From NCBI GenBank assembly GCA_902791625.1, contig CADAWN010000002.1, positions 4,929 to 68,928 of the forward strand: 64,000 nt of DNA, read 5' to 3'. The DNA comes from an uncultured Erysipelotrichaceae bacterium (lineage in GTDB: Bacteria > Bacillota_I > Bacilli_A > RF39 > UBA660). Below, one piece after another: positions 2,445 to 27,844 of this stretch; positions within the stretch are counted from its first letter, which is position 1; each line of letters opens with the position of its first letter. The position numbers and the translations under genes were made by a program. Below the pieces are notes generated by a model. It was not told the origin of the DNA. It searched no databases and worked only from the letters and a program-made list of their open reading frames with translations.

Positions 2445-3398
2445 CTAACCTAAAATAACATATGAATAATAACCTACAAAAAGTAGTAAGAATAGTATTC
2501 CTTCTTTTCTATTTATTCTATAATCTTTAAAACTACAAATAAATAATAATAAACAACTAGCTATCATTGCGATTAAATCTACATAACTAATCGTAAAATG
2601 ATTAATTCCTCCAATTAAAGCTACTGGAAGTCCTATTACTACTCCTATATTAAATATATTACTTCCTACTACATTTCCTATAGCAATATCATATTCACCT
2701 TTTCTAGTTGCTACTACACTGGTAACAAGTTCTGGAAGAGATGTTCCTAGAGCTACTACAGTAAGTGAAATCATTCTTTCGCTAACATGAAGCATTTTAG
2801 CTATTTTAGATGCAGAGTCAACCACAAAATGAGATCCAAATACTAAACAAGCTATTCCTACTAAAGTAAATATTATCGATAGAAGTATATTGAATTTTGG
2901 CTTAGTTTCTTCCTCTTCTTCTGTTTTATTTCTCATAGTTGAAATCAAGTAATAAATAAACACTAAAAAGAATAAAACTATTATAACTCCATCGCTTCTA
3001 GTTATAGTATTAACTTTTGCACCACTAATTAATTTATCACACATTATTACTGAAAGAAGTACAGATAAAAGCATAACTATTGGTAATTCTTTTTTTACAG
3101 TAGAATTCTTTACTCTTAATGCATGAATAGTACCAGCTACTCCTAATATAAGTAAAATATTTAAAATATTACTACCAACTACATTTCCTAAAACGATATC
3201 TCCACTCCCATTAATCATTGATTTAATTGATACAGCAAGTTCTGGAGCACTTGTACCAAAAGCTACTATAGTAAGTGCGATAAACATTTTAGATAATTTA
3301 AAATTTTCAGCTAATGAACTAGCTGCATCAACAAATAAATCAGCACCCTTTACTAAAACTATAAATCCTGCGACTAATATTAAAATTTGCAACCACAT
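2445..3398 (-). CDS. Ca2+/Na+ antiporter, CaCA (YrbG-like) family
   Basis: Multi-pass membrane protein with two alpha-repeat motifs: GNVVGSNILNILLILG and GNVVGSNIFNIGVVIG. Confidence 0.85.
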   Translation of the reverse strand: MWLQILILVAGFIVLVKGADLFVDAASSLAENFKLSKMFIALTIVAFGTSAPELAVSIKSMINGSGDIVLGNVVGSNILNILLILGVAGTIHALRVKNSTVKKELPIVMLLSVLLSVIMCDKLISGAKVNTITRSDGVIIVLFFLVFIYYLISTMRNKTEEEEETKPKFNILLSIIFTLVGIACLVFGSHFVVDSASKIAKMLHVSERMISLTVVALGTSLPELVTSVVATRKGEYDIAIGNVVGSNIFNIGVVIGLPVALIGGINHFTISYVDLIAMIASCLLLFICSFKDYRINRKEGILFLLLFVGYYSYVILG

Positions 3399-3441: not shown

Positions 3442-4290
3442 TTATCTTCTTATACCTTTAAAATTATTTGGATCTAGTGGATCAAATTCAGTCATTGTTC
3501 CATCACTAAGCTCTACTGGGTATTTTCTATTAAAATCTTCTATTTCTTTTCTGTCTTGTTCATCTTTTCCATTAATTAGATTTAATAGATTAAGAGCTGT
3601 TTTATTAACACCTGGAGCATCTACACCAAACATATTACCATTTATTTTTCTTAAAAAATTATTAAATTCAGTATCTATATCTTCTCTTCTTATATCTTCT
3701 GGTTGAATATCTCTATTTTTATATAATCTTTCATTTACATCTTGTAGTCCTAAACGTTCTGGATGTTCAAAACATTCCTCAACTAACTCTCTTGTTCTTT
3801 TAACATAATCAAGTCTATTATAATTATCTTGAGTAATAACCATATCAGCATTAAATACAGATTTTACACAATCAACAAATGGTTCCATAGGAGCAACACT
3901 TATATCTTGTATATCTTCTGCCTTGTGACCTAAATCATTTAAAAACTCTCTAAGTTCCATTACAACATCTTGTGAATAATCTTTACTATTTCTTGCTAAT
4001 TTACTACACATATGTGCAATACCTAATAAACAATATCTTTTTGCTGCTTCTTTTGAAGGTTTCATAGCTTCACTTGTTTTTTCAGATTTAAACATATTGA
4101 TATCAAAAACTTGTGAAAATAAACCATTTACCATTGGTTTTAAATCTTCATGACAATTCTCTAATGCATTTTCTTTATAATATCTTCTAATTTTTCTTAA
4201 TTCATTTAATACATAATTACTACTCATAGTTTTTATTCTATGTGATATTTTTTCTTTTAATGTAGATCTTTTGTAAATATTTAATTCCAT
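3442..4290 (-). CDS. Hypothetical protein
   Basis: 282-aa ORF overlapping the upstream gene by 10 nt. No recognisable motif. Confidence 0.5.
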   Translation of the reverse strand: MELNIYKRSTLKEKISHRIKTMSSNYVLNELRKIRRYYKENALENCHEDLKPMVNGLFSQVFDINMFKSEKTSEAMKPSKEAAKRYCLLGIAHMCSKLARNSKDYSQDVVMELREFLNDLGHKAEDIQDISVAPMEPFVDCVKSVFNADMVITQDNYNRLDYVKRTRELVEECFEHPERLGLQDVNERLYKNRDIQPEDIRREDIDTEFNNFLRKINGNMFGVDAPGVNKTALNLLNLINGKDEQDRKEIEDFNRKYPVELSDGTMTEFDPLDPNNFKGIRR

Positions 4291-24481: not shown

Positions 24482-25138
24482 ATGAGTATTAGTGTTATAA
24501 TCCCTGCATATAATGAAGAAAAATATATTTCTAAAGTTATAGGATTAGTAAAAAAATGTAATTGTGTTGATGAAATATTAGTAGTTGATAATAATTCTAC
24601 TGATAATACATCTAAAATAGCTAAAAAGTGTGGAGCTAGAACTGTTTTTTGTAAAGATCAAGGTAAAGGTTATGCGATGGAAATGGGAATTAAAGAAGCA
24701 AGTGGAGATGTATTAGTTTTTTTAGACGGAGATATATGTAATTATAAGAAAGACTTTATTAAATTACTTATTAACCCTATTTTAAATGATGAAGCTGATT
24801 TTGTTAAAGCTACTTTTAAAAGAGATGGTGGTAGAGTTACTGAATTAGTTGCTAGACCATTATTAGAATTAACATTCCCAGAATTAGGTAATTTCACTCA
24901 ACCTTTAAGTGGAATAATCGCAGGAAGAAAAGAAGTTTTTACTAAAATAACACTTGAAAAAGATTATGGAGTAGATGTGGGTATACTTATAGATGTATAT
25001 AAAAATAAAGATAGATTAACAGAAGTAACTATTGGATCAATAAAAAATTATTCACAAGACTGGCATAGTCTAATAGATATGTCTAAACAAGTATCAAGAG
25101 CTATACTTATAAGAGCTAATAAAATAAAAATAAAATAA
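24482..25138 (+). CDS. Glycosyltransferase, GT2 family
   Basis: ISVIIPAYNEEKYI, VVDNNSTDNT and DGD motifs; GGAGGG RBS. Confidence 0.85.
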   Translation: MSISVIIPAYNEEKYISKVIGLVKKCNCVDEILVVDNNSTDNTSKIAKKCGARTVFCKDQGKGYAMEMGIKEASGDVLVFLDGDICNYKKDFIKLLINPILNDEADFVKATFKRDGGRVTELVARPLLELTFPELGNFTQPLSGIIAGRKEVFTKITLEKDYGVDVGILIDVYKNKDRLTEVTIGSIKNYSQDWHSLIDMSKQVSRAILIRANKIKIK

Positions 25139-25167
25139 AAGAGTTCATTTTTTAGAACTCTTTTTTT
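25137..25167. terminator. Bidirectional hairpin between convergent genes
   Basis: 9-bp stem AAAGAGTTC/GAACTCTTT flanked by an A-run and a T-run. Confidence 0.5.
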
Positions 25168-25444
25168 CATTTATAGTTATATATGCTTTTCTAGATTTAA
25201 TAAATACATATACTAGTAACATTAATCCAATTACCATTGTAAGTATTCCTTCTACTACATTCTTTTTAATTGTATAGATGCCTATATATACAATAACTGC
25301 TAGTACAGATAATATTATTAAAAAGAATAATGTTATTATGAATAACAATATAAATCTTTTTAACTTAGAGTTATTTTTATCCCTACTTGCCTCTATTAAT
25401 TCATTTAATATAAACTCAAGTATTATTTCAAATATTATATCCAT
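25145..25444 (-). CDS. Small membrane protein
   Basis: 99 aa with two long hydrophobic helices. Confidence 0.45.
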   Translation of the reverse strand: MDIIFEIILEFILNELIEASRDKNNSKLKRFILLFIITLFFLIILSVLAVIVYIGIYTIKKNVVEGILTMVIGLMLLVYVFIKSRKAYITINEKKSSKK

Positions 25445-25474
25445 AACAACACCTCTCTATTAATATTATAACAT

Positions 25475-25500
25475 AAAAACTGCATTACTGCAGTTTTTTT
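25475..25500 (-). terminator. Intrinsic terminator of the 25505-26803 gene
   Basis: 10-bp stem AAAAACTGCA/TGCAGTTTTT with a 4-nt loop, followed by a T-run on either strand. Confidence 0.65.
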
Positions 25501-25504
25501 ATTT

Positions 25505-26803
25505 TTATCCAATATCACTTGTATTTATTTCTATAACTGGGCGAACGCCGTAGTAGTCGTCGTCGCTGCAGTCGTCGTAGCTGAAGCTCGGGGCGTACGA
25601 AGACACATGCCACACGCTGCCATTGTCGTAAGCAGAACCAAGCCAAAATGGTGTTTTCTTAATGAATGACCCTTCTGGGCACGTATTTTCATTTGCATCA
25701 CATCCTAGACTTGTTGCTTCTTCAAAAGTTAATAACCTTCCTGTTATAGTTGATGGAGCTCCCATTTCGATTAATTTTGTTTTATATTGTTCTACATAGT
25801 AAGCTATGTTATATCCTGGTGTATTCCATCCATCATTTTCAAAATCAGGAGCTGTAGTTAGTGAACTATTATATACAAATGGTTTTGGATTTCCATCATA
25901 ACTTGCTCCAGTTGCATTATATGGACTTAGTAATCCATTTCCATCATCCCAGTAGTTTGTACTTGAGAAAGCTACTGTTGAATAATAAGAATTGCCATCA
26001 TATCCAATGGCATCTACACTTTGTAAACCATATCCTGGTGTTGACGGAGACATGTATGTATCCTCATAATTAGTGCTTTCATTATTGCTATATCCTACTA
26101 ATAAGTTGTATTTTGAAATTAACACTGTCTTTTCTTGATTACTTGATACTACATAGAAGTCTTCTGTTTCTCCTATTCCTACTATATCTCCTGGTTGTAA
26201 GTTACCTTTTTCTCCTTTTATAATTCTTACAGCACTTTGTTGCCCAGATTTTTCTCCTTGTACATAATCTACTTCAAATACTAGTTTCATTGTTTCTGTT
26301 GTTGAGTCATTCAATGTACTTGGATCTATATCTGTTTTATACCATACTCTTACTTTATACTTCTTTCTTGTTGGGGTATTTCCTTTTTTAGCTTCTAGAA
26401 CATCTCCTGCAGTAACATCTGCATCATTTTCTGCATATTTAACAGTATATCCAAGATAATCTGGTAAGTTCTTTGGTGTTGTTCCATCACTTTCATATAC
26501 ATTGTTCTTTACTCCATTTGGAGCTATTTTTGCATTTAAGCTTCCTTCATTTACAGCGTCACTATATTCTATTTGTGTCTTACCAGCATCTGTTACTCTT
26601 GCTCCATTTCCTTCTGATGTTGCTACACTTCCACTTGTTACTTGTATACTATTTTCATCCCAATATACATTCCATCTTGCACTTTTTACATCTGCACTAC
26701 CATTTATCTTTAATGTTGTAGCTATTGCCGCATATCCAATAGTAATTGCTAGAAGTAAAATAATTACAGTTAGTAATGTCTTATTCTTTTTGTTTTTCTT
26801 CAT
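25505..26803 (-). CDS. Membrane-anchored surface protein with lectin-like (DUF1566/DUF6273-like) C-terminal domain ending in a YGVRPV motif
   Basis: 432 aa with an N-terminal signal anchor. The C-terminus FWLGSAY...YYGVRPVIEI parallels WWLATGN...YAGLRPVIHL in ORF 44873-46078. The gene has its own promoter and terminator. Confidence 0.6.
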   Translation of the reverse strand: MKKNKKNKTLLTVIILLLAITIGYAAIATTLKINGSADVKSARWNVYWDENSIQVTSGSVATSEGNGARVTDAGKTQIEYSDAVNEGSLNAKIAPNGVKNNVYESDGTTPKNLPDYLGYTVKYAENDADVTAGDVLEAKKGNTPTRKKYKVRVWYKTDIDPSTLNDSTTETMKLVFEVDYVQGEKSGQQSAVRIIKGEKGNLQPGDIVGIGETEDFYVVSSNQEKTVLISKYNLLVGYSNNESTNYEDTYMSPSTPGYGLQSVDAIGYDGNSYYSTVAFSSTNYWDDGNGLLSPYNATGASYDGNPKPFVYNSSLTTAPDFENDGWNTPGYNIAYYVEQYKTKLIEMGAPSTITGRLLTFEEATSLGCDANENTCPEGSFIKKTPFWLGSAYDNGSVWHVSSYAPSFSYDDCSDDDYYGVRPVIEINTSDIG

Positions 26804-26830
26804 CTTTTCCTCCTATTATTATTTAATAAT

Positions 26831-26860
26831 AGTATACCCCCCCCCACTGAATTTTGTCAA
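26831..26860 (-). promoter_or_regulatory. Sigma-A-type promoter (TTGACA, 18-nt spacer, TATACT) with a G9 tract in the spacer
   Basis: Minus strand reads caCATTGACAaaattcagtGGGGGGGGGTATACTatt...GGAGGaaaagaATG. The -35 is at 26855-26860 and the -10 at 26831-26836. Confidence 0.65.
26837..26845. repeat. Homopolymeric C9/G9 tract
   Basis: Nine consecutive C on the plus strand. It is the only long G/C homopolymer I saw in this AT-rich window. Confidence 0.95.
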
Positions 26861-26882
26861 TGTGAAATAGATAAAATAATAA

Positions 26883-27774
26883 CTATACTAACTCATATTC
26901 ACTTGATAATATTCTTTTGTCACTTGAATACTTAATTATATATTTATTATCTTTTTTAGTAATTATTATTCCTATAGTTTTATCTTGATTTATTCTTCTT
27001 AAATTATTATCTATATAATTCATATATACCTCAATCTGACCAATATGTTCTTTTTTTAACTCTGTTACTTTTAACTCTACTACTACTAAACTCTATATTA
27101 AATAGTAATAAATCTATGTAGTTATAAGTATTACCTATTTTTATCTTATATTCATTACCAACATAACTATATCCATTACTTAGTTGTAATAAAAAACTAT
27201 CTAGATTATTTAATATAGATTCTTTTAAAGCATATTCAGAAAACTTTTCCTTTGATGAAGTCTTTTTAATAATTATTGGATTAGGTATTAAATCTTTTAT
27301 ATCAAGTTCTTGTCGTTTTATAATTTTATTCTTTGTATTATTAGGTAATCTATTATAAGTATTGTTTTTTATTAAATCATGTAATTGTCTCTGAGTTAGG
27401 TTTTTATTCTCACACTCATTTAAATAATATATTATCTCATTTATATTTTTAAGTGATAAAACTTCACGATAATGACTCCAACTCAATTTGGAACGCAATG
27501 TGTTCCATTTTATTTCATTTAGCATTTCATAGAATTGCCTCATATATCTTAGATTTCTTTCATTATATTTTTTACCAACTTCAATCATTAGTTTATCTGA
27601 ATACTGTTTAATTATATTTTTACCATATTCTTTACCTGCTTCACTTAATAATCTTCCTATTTTGAAATATACAAATACTTTATTTCTATCTTTTGAATAA
27701 TCTTTTGCTCTATCATATATTTCACTTTTTATTAATTCTTCTTTTATACTTTTATAATAATCCGTAATTATCAC
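26883..27774 (-). pseudogene. DUF1016/YhcG-type PD-(D/E)xK nuclease-like gene, frameshifted near 27085-27095
   Basis: The track ORF ends ...YIDLLLFNIEFSSSRVKSNRVKKRTYWSD. The +1 frame continues SLVVELKVTELKKEHIGQIEVYMNYIDNNLRRINQDKTIGIIITKKDNKYIIKYSSDKRILSSEYELV to a TAG at 26883-26885, restoring the family's conserved VVELK core and C-terminus. Confidence 0.7.
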
Positions 27775-27844
27775 CTCAATTGTATTATACTGAGGTGATA
27801 CTAAAAATTCTAAAAAAATATTTTTTGTTTCTACTTCTTTTTTT

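Follow-up and report, generated by a model that had tools for sequence, protein, structure and literature searches.

In Mycoplasma hyorhinis, the variable surface proteins of the vlp system are encoded by a multi-gene family, in which the promoter spacer of every copy contains a separate homopolymer and each copy switches independently of the others. Homopolymers between the -35 and -10 boxes are also described for Neisseria, where the tract lengths of porA (poly-G) and fetA/frpB (poly-C) differ among strains and set transcription via the length of the spacer (PMC5320596, with reference to van der Ende 1995 and Carson 2000). In Treponema pallidum, tp0126 contains a poly-G tract at this position, and transcription is optimal once the spacing between the two boxes reaches 17 nt (PMC7864442). 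Variable poly-G tracts of 7-11 G are furthermore found in the promoters of several tpr genes (tprE/G/J/L), which belong to a paralogous family of candidate surface proteins (PMC7864442).

The locus described here is located in a 64-kb stretch of DNA from an uncultured bacterium, in the following called the window. Like porA and fetA, it exhibits a G/C homopolymer of strain-variable length between the -35 and -10 boxes of a gene for a surface protein, in our case a putative one. Probably, this G9 tract is a slippage-driven expression dial of the kind known from porA, fetA and tp0126. Unlike in Neisseria, the host belongs to uncultured, AT-rich (26% GC) Bacilli of the ruminant gut and is not a Gram-negative pathogen. 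Instead of a porin or a TonB-dependent receptor, the gene encodes a weakly TasA-like protein with a C-terminus of the type diversified by diversity-generating retroelements (DGR). The promoter cassette is common to several paralogs, most of which contain interrupted, presumably locked tracts, and the system is known here from its sequence only. As a multi-copy family with a common G-tract promoter, the tpr family comes nearest. The tpr tract is situated just upstream of the transcription start, whereas the tract of our locus lies inside a canonical spacer, and in Treponema the length heterogeneity within isolates and the effects on reporters have been measured, whereas here the tract is known from consensus assemblies. 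With vlp the locus shares a low-GC, Firmicutes-related host and a multi-gene family of variable, here putative, surface proteins. In contrast, the vlp tract is poly-A, the products are lipoproteins and their size variation arises from repeats in the coding region, while our family shows DGR mutagenesis and mosaic C-termini. Both the host and the gene family are unusual for a spacer homopolymer of this known kind.

The gene in question is a CDS of 432 aa on the minus strand (25505..26803). Minus-strand positions 26860-26831 read TTGACA-aaattcagt-G9-TATACT. The -35 hexamer TTGACA (26855..26860) matches the consensus perfectly, and the -10 hexamer TATACT (26831..26836) matches it at 5 of 6 positions and is kept by the paralogs, with TATAAT, TACACT and TATATT as variants. 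The 18-nt spacer consists of a 5' half, aaattcagt (26846..26854), which close paralogs keep with the variants aaatttagt, aaattcggt and tttttcggt, and of the G9 homopolymer GGGGGGGGG as 3' half (26837..26845; C9 on the plus strand), which is the proposed site of slippage. Between the -10 box and the Shine-Dalgarno sequence GGAGG (26809..26813, read from the sequence) there are 17 nt composed only of A and T, attattaaataataata (26814-26830, minus strand). The sequence aaaag (26804-26808, minus strand) follows, so that the ATG at 26803 is reached 5 nt further. The 5' UTR is predicted to comprise about 20 nt. A first-pass annotation of this DNA had already recognized the two boxes, the 18-nt spacer and the G9 tract as half of it, and all of these are indeed present on the minus strand. 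Its placement of GGAGG 27 nt after the -10 box has to be corrected, as GGAGG begins 17 nt after this box and 27 nt is the distance from the -10 box to the ATG.

The window has a GC content of 26%. G9 apart, runs of G or C stay at 5 nt or below throughout its 64 kb, in agreement with the earlier remark that no other long run of these bases was seen. According to a first-order Markov model, about 0.004 runs of at least 9 are expected in the window for both bases together. Nine G is a length also known from other poly-G tracts of this type, and the run is pure and, with a requirement of about 7-8 G/C or more, long enough to slip frequently. The plus strand of the whole window is strongly asymmetric in its composition (C 10267 vs G 6360; T 25827 vs A 21546).

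In a consensus scan of positions 25000-27200, TTGACA-N18-TATACT was the top-ranked promoter-like site, with 11 of 12 matches. Over the 64-kb window, sigma-70 consensus matches of at least 11/12 were not enriched (4 found vs 9.1 +/- 3.1 in shuffled sequences). Since the consensus score is thus not above chance in AT-rich DNA, the promoter call rests on the position of the site and on its conservation across paralogs. Neither a second copy of the promoter nor a paralog of the gene was found in the 64-kb window. An Rfam scan of the whole window detected no RNA family, and therefore no riboswitch or sRNA accounts for the region.

For the comparison, DNA of 12 close relatives was obtained via homologs of the protein and via an identical downstream glycosyltransferase. 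An exact-protein look-up of the window protein returned no record, and a scan with the pattern TTGACAAAATTCAGT...AATAATAATAGGAGG gave 0 matches in metagenome contigs and likewise 0 in viral contigs. Copies of the gene occur behind at least five different upstream neighbours, namely a DUF1016 gene, a KilA-N gene, an ORF of 523-529 aa, RNase J and non-homologous sequence (the latter in loci L142 and L143). In the promoter alignments, these differently located copies become alignable precisely at TTGACA. This hexamer is invariant in all 14 paralog and ortholog promoters compared, two copies from UBA7476, another species, among them. The -10 box, the Shine-Dalgarno sequence and the first ~200 nt of the coding region are nearly identical across the aligned copies. 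AGGAG is invariant and the last G of GGAGG nearly so (A in L144). Because copies from at least five contexts align from TTGACA onward and not one of the 14 sequences deviates in this box, the promoter is credible, and TTGACA-N18-TATACT is very probably the real promoter of the gene. The assumption that the tract lies inside the promoter spacer of the surface-protein gene is thus very probably correct.

The length of the G block was compared in 270 aligned columns of promoter and 5' coding region from 13 sequences. The block is the sole internal indel site of this alignment, the few other gapped columns belonging to its ragged end, and it is also the site with the most haplotypes (8-9 among the 13 sequences). 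G9 with a -10 box TATACT and a spacer of 18 nt is present in the window, L145 and L001, hence as the consensus of three independent assemblies. L003 carries G7 (TATAAT, spacer 16 nt) and L142 G10 (TATACT, 19 nt). Interrupted blocks are represented by GGGGCTGG in L143 (TATATT, 17 nt), GGTGGGGGG in L138 and L139 (TATACT, 18 nt), GGTGGGGGA in L002, L141 and L144 (TATACT, 18 nt), GGAGGATGG in L137 (TACACT, 18 nt), GGAAAAGGG in L058 (TATACT, 18 nt) and GGGGGAG in L140 (TATACT, 16 nt). In the UBA7476 copies we found G7 in L006 and GGTGGTGG in another copy. Four of the six interrupted versions (GGTGGGGGG, GGTGGGGGA, GGAGGATGG and GGAAAAGGG) retain 9 nt. As the interrupted blocks mostly hold this length, the usual spacing of the family appears to be 18 nt.

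Pure tracts of G7, G9 and G10 were observed, in a small sample of only 5 distinct uninterrupted tracts. Invariance among strains, which the first-pass annotation had named as speaking against its reading, was not found: the same locus carries G7 in one strain and G9 in another, and the pure tracts are G7, G9, G9 and G10. At this locus, which is adjacent to the DUF1016 gene, L003 with G7 and the window with G9 show a divergence of ~1% across ~850 nt upstream, and in addition to G7, L003 has two base changes relative to the window, located within the -10 box or adjoining it. The DGR-linked locus carries G10 in L142 and GGGGCTGG in the ortholog L143. In 619 kb of DNA from 151 related loci there are six G/C runs of at least 7, all of them at this promoter position. 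Judged from these sequences, the pattern of lengths is that expected of a slippage-prone tract.

The transcription unit ends with a hairpin resembling an intrinsic terminator, AAAAACTGCAGTAATGCAGTTTTT (25475..25498, minus strand), which was detected in a terminator scan and has a predicted RNA folding energy of -15.6 kcal/mol (z = -3.3). The paralogs, too, each have a hairpin and T-run right after the stop codon, which differ from locus to locus. Directly past the terminator hairpin of the window gene there is an extended -10 element, TGTTATAAT (25465-25473, minus strand), 20 nt before the ATG of a conserved ORF for a membrane protein of 99 aa (25145-25444). The TGTTATAAT motif is also found after the terminators of other paralog loci, ahead of unrelated genes. 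The description of the gene as monocistronic with a terminator of its own holds, the hairpin being present and the downstream 99-aa gene having its own TGTTATAAT -10 box. Since each copy has a locus-specific terminator and the 99-aa gene its own TGTTATAAT, promoter, gene and terminator form an autonomous unit.

We propose that the promoter is of the sigma-A type and drives a separately transcribed gene, whose product would be a hypervariable surface protein, either secreted or anchored. The G9 tract, making up the 3' half of the promoter spacer, would undergo slipped-strand mispairing at replication, as may be expected of an uninterrupted homopolymer. Gain or loss of a G would shift the spacing between the -35 and -10 boxes within 16 to 19 nt and alter the strength of the promoter, and cells and strains would then differ in the level of this family member. 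We consider it moderately likely that changes of spacer length by slipped-strand mispairing affect promoter strength and cause differences in expression among cells and strains in this way. The rate of slippage, the transcription start, the effect of tract length on transcription and the reversibility within a population are what we infer from the sequences compared. G9, giving a spacer of 18 nt, would be an expressing state, G8 (17 nt) would give at least as much expression, and weaker expression would be expected of G7 and G10. G9 is probably the normal expressed configuration, and since it gives the 18 nt typical of the family, a rheostat rather than a clean ON/OFF would be expected; a change by one G in either direction may act as a volume control instead of an ON/OFF switch. 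The reading of the tract as a phase-variation switch can accordingly be kept only in part. The position in the promoter spacer, the polymorphism among strains and the stand-alone gene speak for it, whereas its ON/OFF form is weakened, and the interrupted blocks mostly keep 18 nt. Some further observations count against a dial: G9 is the consensus of all three assemblies, the window, L145 and L001; an 18-nt spacer is already sub-optimal, so that a change of 1 nt may give graded effects only; the G7 of L003 is linked to substitutions at the -10 box, and gene conversion could be its source instead of simple slippage; and the G-rich block is kept even where it is interrupted, so its function may be unrelated to slippage.

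The lineage of the window shows damage in and around the gene. The window protein contains an in-frame deletion, its junction being located at 26560..26561 (minus strand) between codons 81 and 82, by which 14 conserved residues, VELSEPGDFYEFTV, were removed. Among 28 aligned family members, VELSEPGDFYEFTV is missing from the window protein only and is present in all 27 others. Compared with L001 and L003 the deletion at 26560/26561 comprises 42 nt, compared with L145 only 41 nt (regions compared: L145:2263-2390 and L001:1303-1420). L145, an almost identical strain, likewise carries G9 and shows no substitutions relative to the window over a length of 1.5 kb, but exhibits a 1-nt deletion at the same spot (GTAGAC to GTGAC), by which the gene is shifted out of frame and split into ORFs of 97 aa and 269 aa. 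The 41-nt deletion of the window relative to L145 restores the frame, apparently pointing to a knock-out followed by a crude rescue. Upstream, the window contains a pseudogene of a DUF1016/YhcG nuclease (26883..27780, minus strand; Pfam DUF1016_N and YhcG_C), which marks the orthologous locus. Near 27080 the pseudogene is 8 nt shorter than its counterparts in L001 and L003 owing to a deletion, and an ATG-to-ACG change together with a 1-nt insertion has removed its start. The DUF1016 gene of L145 is a pseudogene, too, with the same truncated 247-aa ORF called. Since ordinary mutations knocked out and apparently rescued the surface-protein gene, G9 in the promoter being unchanged, the role of the tract as the main route to an OFF state is weakened here. 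The damage in this lineage is compatible with strong fluctuating selection on expression, and the promoter of the window allele may drive a crippled protein.

This damage might also indicate that the gene is simply decaying, promoter and G tract being functionless relics in front of a gene for a defective protein. The gene of L145 is split by its 1-nt deletion, the window regained its frame only at the cost of 14 residues conserved in 27 of 27 relatives, the adjoining DUF1016 gene is a pseudogene as well, and the AF2 model of the window protein reaches a pLDDT of 59 compared to 85 for P0002, an intact relative with a deeper alignment. We nevertheless regard decay as improbable. The window ORF is intact with 432 codons, the promoter, Shine-Dalgarno sequence and terminator carry no mutations and agree fully with the intact allele of L001, and the restoration of the frame by a deletion points rather to selection for renewed expression. 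It is very improbable that the tract or its length is an artefact of sequencing or assembly. Homopolymers are error-prone on some platforms, and assemblies often break within this gene, but G9 is present in the same context in the assemblies of other samples (L001 from ERZ28633704 and L145 from ERZ920288), and the indels by which the window differs from its relatives, namely the 8-nt deletion, the 41/42-nt deletion and the 1-nt insertion at the lost DUF1016 start, do not include any change in the length of a long homopolymer.

Rather unlikely, and yet deserving more weight than decay or artefact, is a role of the G-rich block as a conserved cis element, for example as the site of a regulator or as a structure within the spacer. 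The pure G9 would then be incidental, the different lengths would reflect an ordinary history of indels and gene conversion, and expression would be under conventional regulation. Such an element would account for the G-rich block of 7-10 nt, which all 13 close sequences and the two UBA7476 copies have at this position, pure or not, and for the interrupted versions mostly holding exactly 9 nt and thus an 18-nt spacer. G9 is only one T-to-G change away from the GGTGGGGGG of L138, and the substitutions linked to the G7 of L003 match a 'tttatt' variant of other paralogs, suggesting gene conversion. However, no internal sequence is kept beyond the richness in G, and GGAAAAGGG, GGAGGATGG and GGTGGGGGA share so little that they fit poorly to a sequence-specific operator. 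Length changes occur, moreover, at no other position of the otherwise homogenised block. A tract of G9 or G10 can slip whatever its origin, and a cis element therefore concerns selection on the block more than the mechanism of its length change. A G-quadruplex or recombination signal like the one upstream of Neisseria pilE was rejected by reasoning alone, as a single block of 7-10 G cannot provide four G runs.

The protein governed by the promoter belongs to a multi-copy family of predicted secreted proteins from uncultured ruminant Bacilli. A signal-anchor at the N-terminus is followed by a beta domain with a weak likeness to TasA, and the C-terminal domain is variable. We found 401 homologs, none of them named and all from metagenome-assembled genomes (MAGs) of uncultured Bacilli/Firmicutes. 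Genome scans revealed several copies per genome in MAGs from the ruminant gut, e.g. UBA7476, RGIG8845 and RGIG6854. No family was assigned to the window protein in Pfam or NCBIfam, a scan of the 28-member alignment gave sub-threshold family matches only, and a sequence search of the PDB with the family profile returned nothing meaningful. The N-terminus (residues 1-30) consists of the basic sequence MKKNKKNK followed by a hydrophobic stretch of ~20 residues and is, as read from this sequence, a signal-anchor or signal peptide. In the AF2 model of the intact relative P0002 (pLDDT 85, 96 sequences), residues 8-26 form a helix. The model of the window protein (pLDDT 59, 28 sequences) is too poor to use, and its Foldseek matches are noise. 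For the P0002 model, the best Foldseek match in the PDB was the TasA fibre 8aur_A (E = 0.01, probability 0.87) with low TM-scores, TasA monomers appearing lower in the list, and altogether the fold searches with P0002 gave weak DUF6273-like and TasA-like matches only. PF12389 (camelysin/TasA, Peptidase_M73) is precomputed for a few homologs, and only one of the 28 family members reaches it (E = 0.027). The modelled resemblance of the N-terminal domain to TasA is weak and may serve as a lead only. The basic and hydrophobic signal-anchor, the DGR-type variable C-terminus and the weakly TasA-like fold all agree with the original designation as a surface protein, which is plausible rather than proven.

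The C-terminus of the family resembles DGR-diversified proteins such as Mtd of the Bordetella phage and TvpA of Treponema denticola, in that L138, L142 and L143 have a C-terminal variable region with mismatches strictly at template adenines. In these three loci, an AAC-rich template repeat lies ~180 nt downstream of the gene and pairs with its final ~100 nt (L138:2908-3015 with 3227-3334; L142:~3650-3755 with 3963-4067). In L138 and L142, 19 of the 39-40 adenines of the template are mismatched to the gene, compared to 0 of its 62-68 other bases (p ~ 1e-10). The template repeat is followed in L138, L142 and L143 by a MutS_I-like ORF, bAvd and a reverse transcriptase, and this arrangement is a textbook diversity-generating retroelement. 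The window gene contains a segment resembling a DGR variable region at its 3' end (25535..25645, minus strand), which ends with GGCGTTCGCCC and exhibits 70-73% identity to the template repeats of L138 and L142. Compared with the template repeats of these other loci, it has mismatches at 22 of 40 A sites and at 10 of 67 non-A sites (p = 2e-5). Unlike the loci of Mtd and TvpA, the window copy has this segment only, without template repeat, reverse transcriptase or Avd in the 64 kb. When the 64-kb window was searched by tblastn for the reverse transcriptase, Avd and MutS_I-like protein known from L142, and by blastn for the template repeats, we found only the 3' end of the gene itself. Mutagenesis of the window copy by a DGR in cis was rejected, as template repeat, reverse transcriptase and Avd are all missing from the window. 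A trans-acting DGR elsewhere in the genome is possible. For a C-type lectin fold of the C-terminal domain, the fold searches gave nothing beyond the weak DUF6273-like and TasA-like matches.

Furthermore, the family appears as a mosaic. In alignment columns ~200-533 of P0001-P0065, the N-terminal halves cluster by species, and the C-terminal halves cross these clusters. P0019 and P0026 carry a C-terminal segment of the window type behind divergent N-termini. Such a distribution in the sequences suggests an exchange of cassettes between paralogs or species. Judging by its sequences, a multi-copy family with mosaic C-termini and paralogs that are DGR targets fits a contingency locus.

Tentatively, three layers of variation can be envisaged for a TasA-like surface or fibre family of walled, uncultured gut Bacilli, and we regard their combination as possible rather than likely. 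Slippage of poly-G would act in a promoter cassette shared by all paralogs and raise or lower the expression of single copies, interrupted tracts being locked; DGR mutagenesis would diversify a ligand-binding segment at the C-terminus; and recombination would exchange C-terminal cassettes behind a homogenised block of promoter and 5' region. To our knowledge, no phase-variable DGR target has been described. A full-text literature search combining phase variation and DGR gave only unrelated work, and a large survey of DGRs makes no mention of phase variation or promoters (PMC8144416). If the expression dial is confirmed, the classic strategy of pathogens to tune surface proteins stochastically by a homopolymer in the spacer would also be used by a commensal, namely an uncultured one from the gut of ruminants. 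One family diversified by a retroelement would then vary both in being made and in its binding target, which would bear on the evasion of phages, the adhesion to host or particles and the strain-level dynamics in rumen communities.

Two minor observations concern the assemblies and the DGR loci. Five of the seven contigs recovered via the glycosyltransferase stop inside or just past the gene (contig ends in L146, L147, L149, L150 and L151). These breaks are consistent with a near-identical repeat of the promoter and the 5' ~600 nt common to several paralogs per genome; the shared promoter/5' cassette together with the homopolymer would explain why assemblies break at these genes. In the DGR loci, the ORF located between the template repeat and bAvd has 138 aa and a match to MutS_I in Pfam (L138:3552-3968, L142:4281-4697 and L143:1989-2405), and this MutS_I-type ORF seems to be an unusual accessory gene of a DGR.
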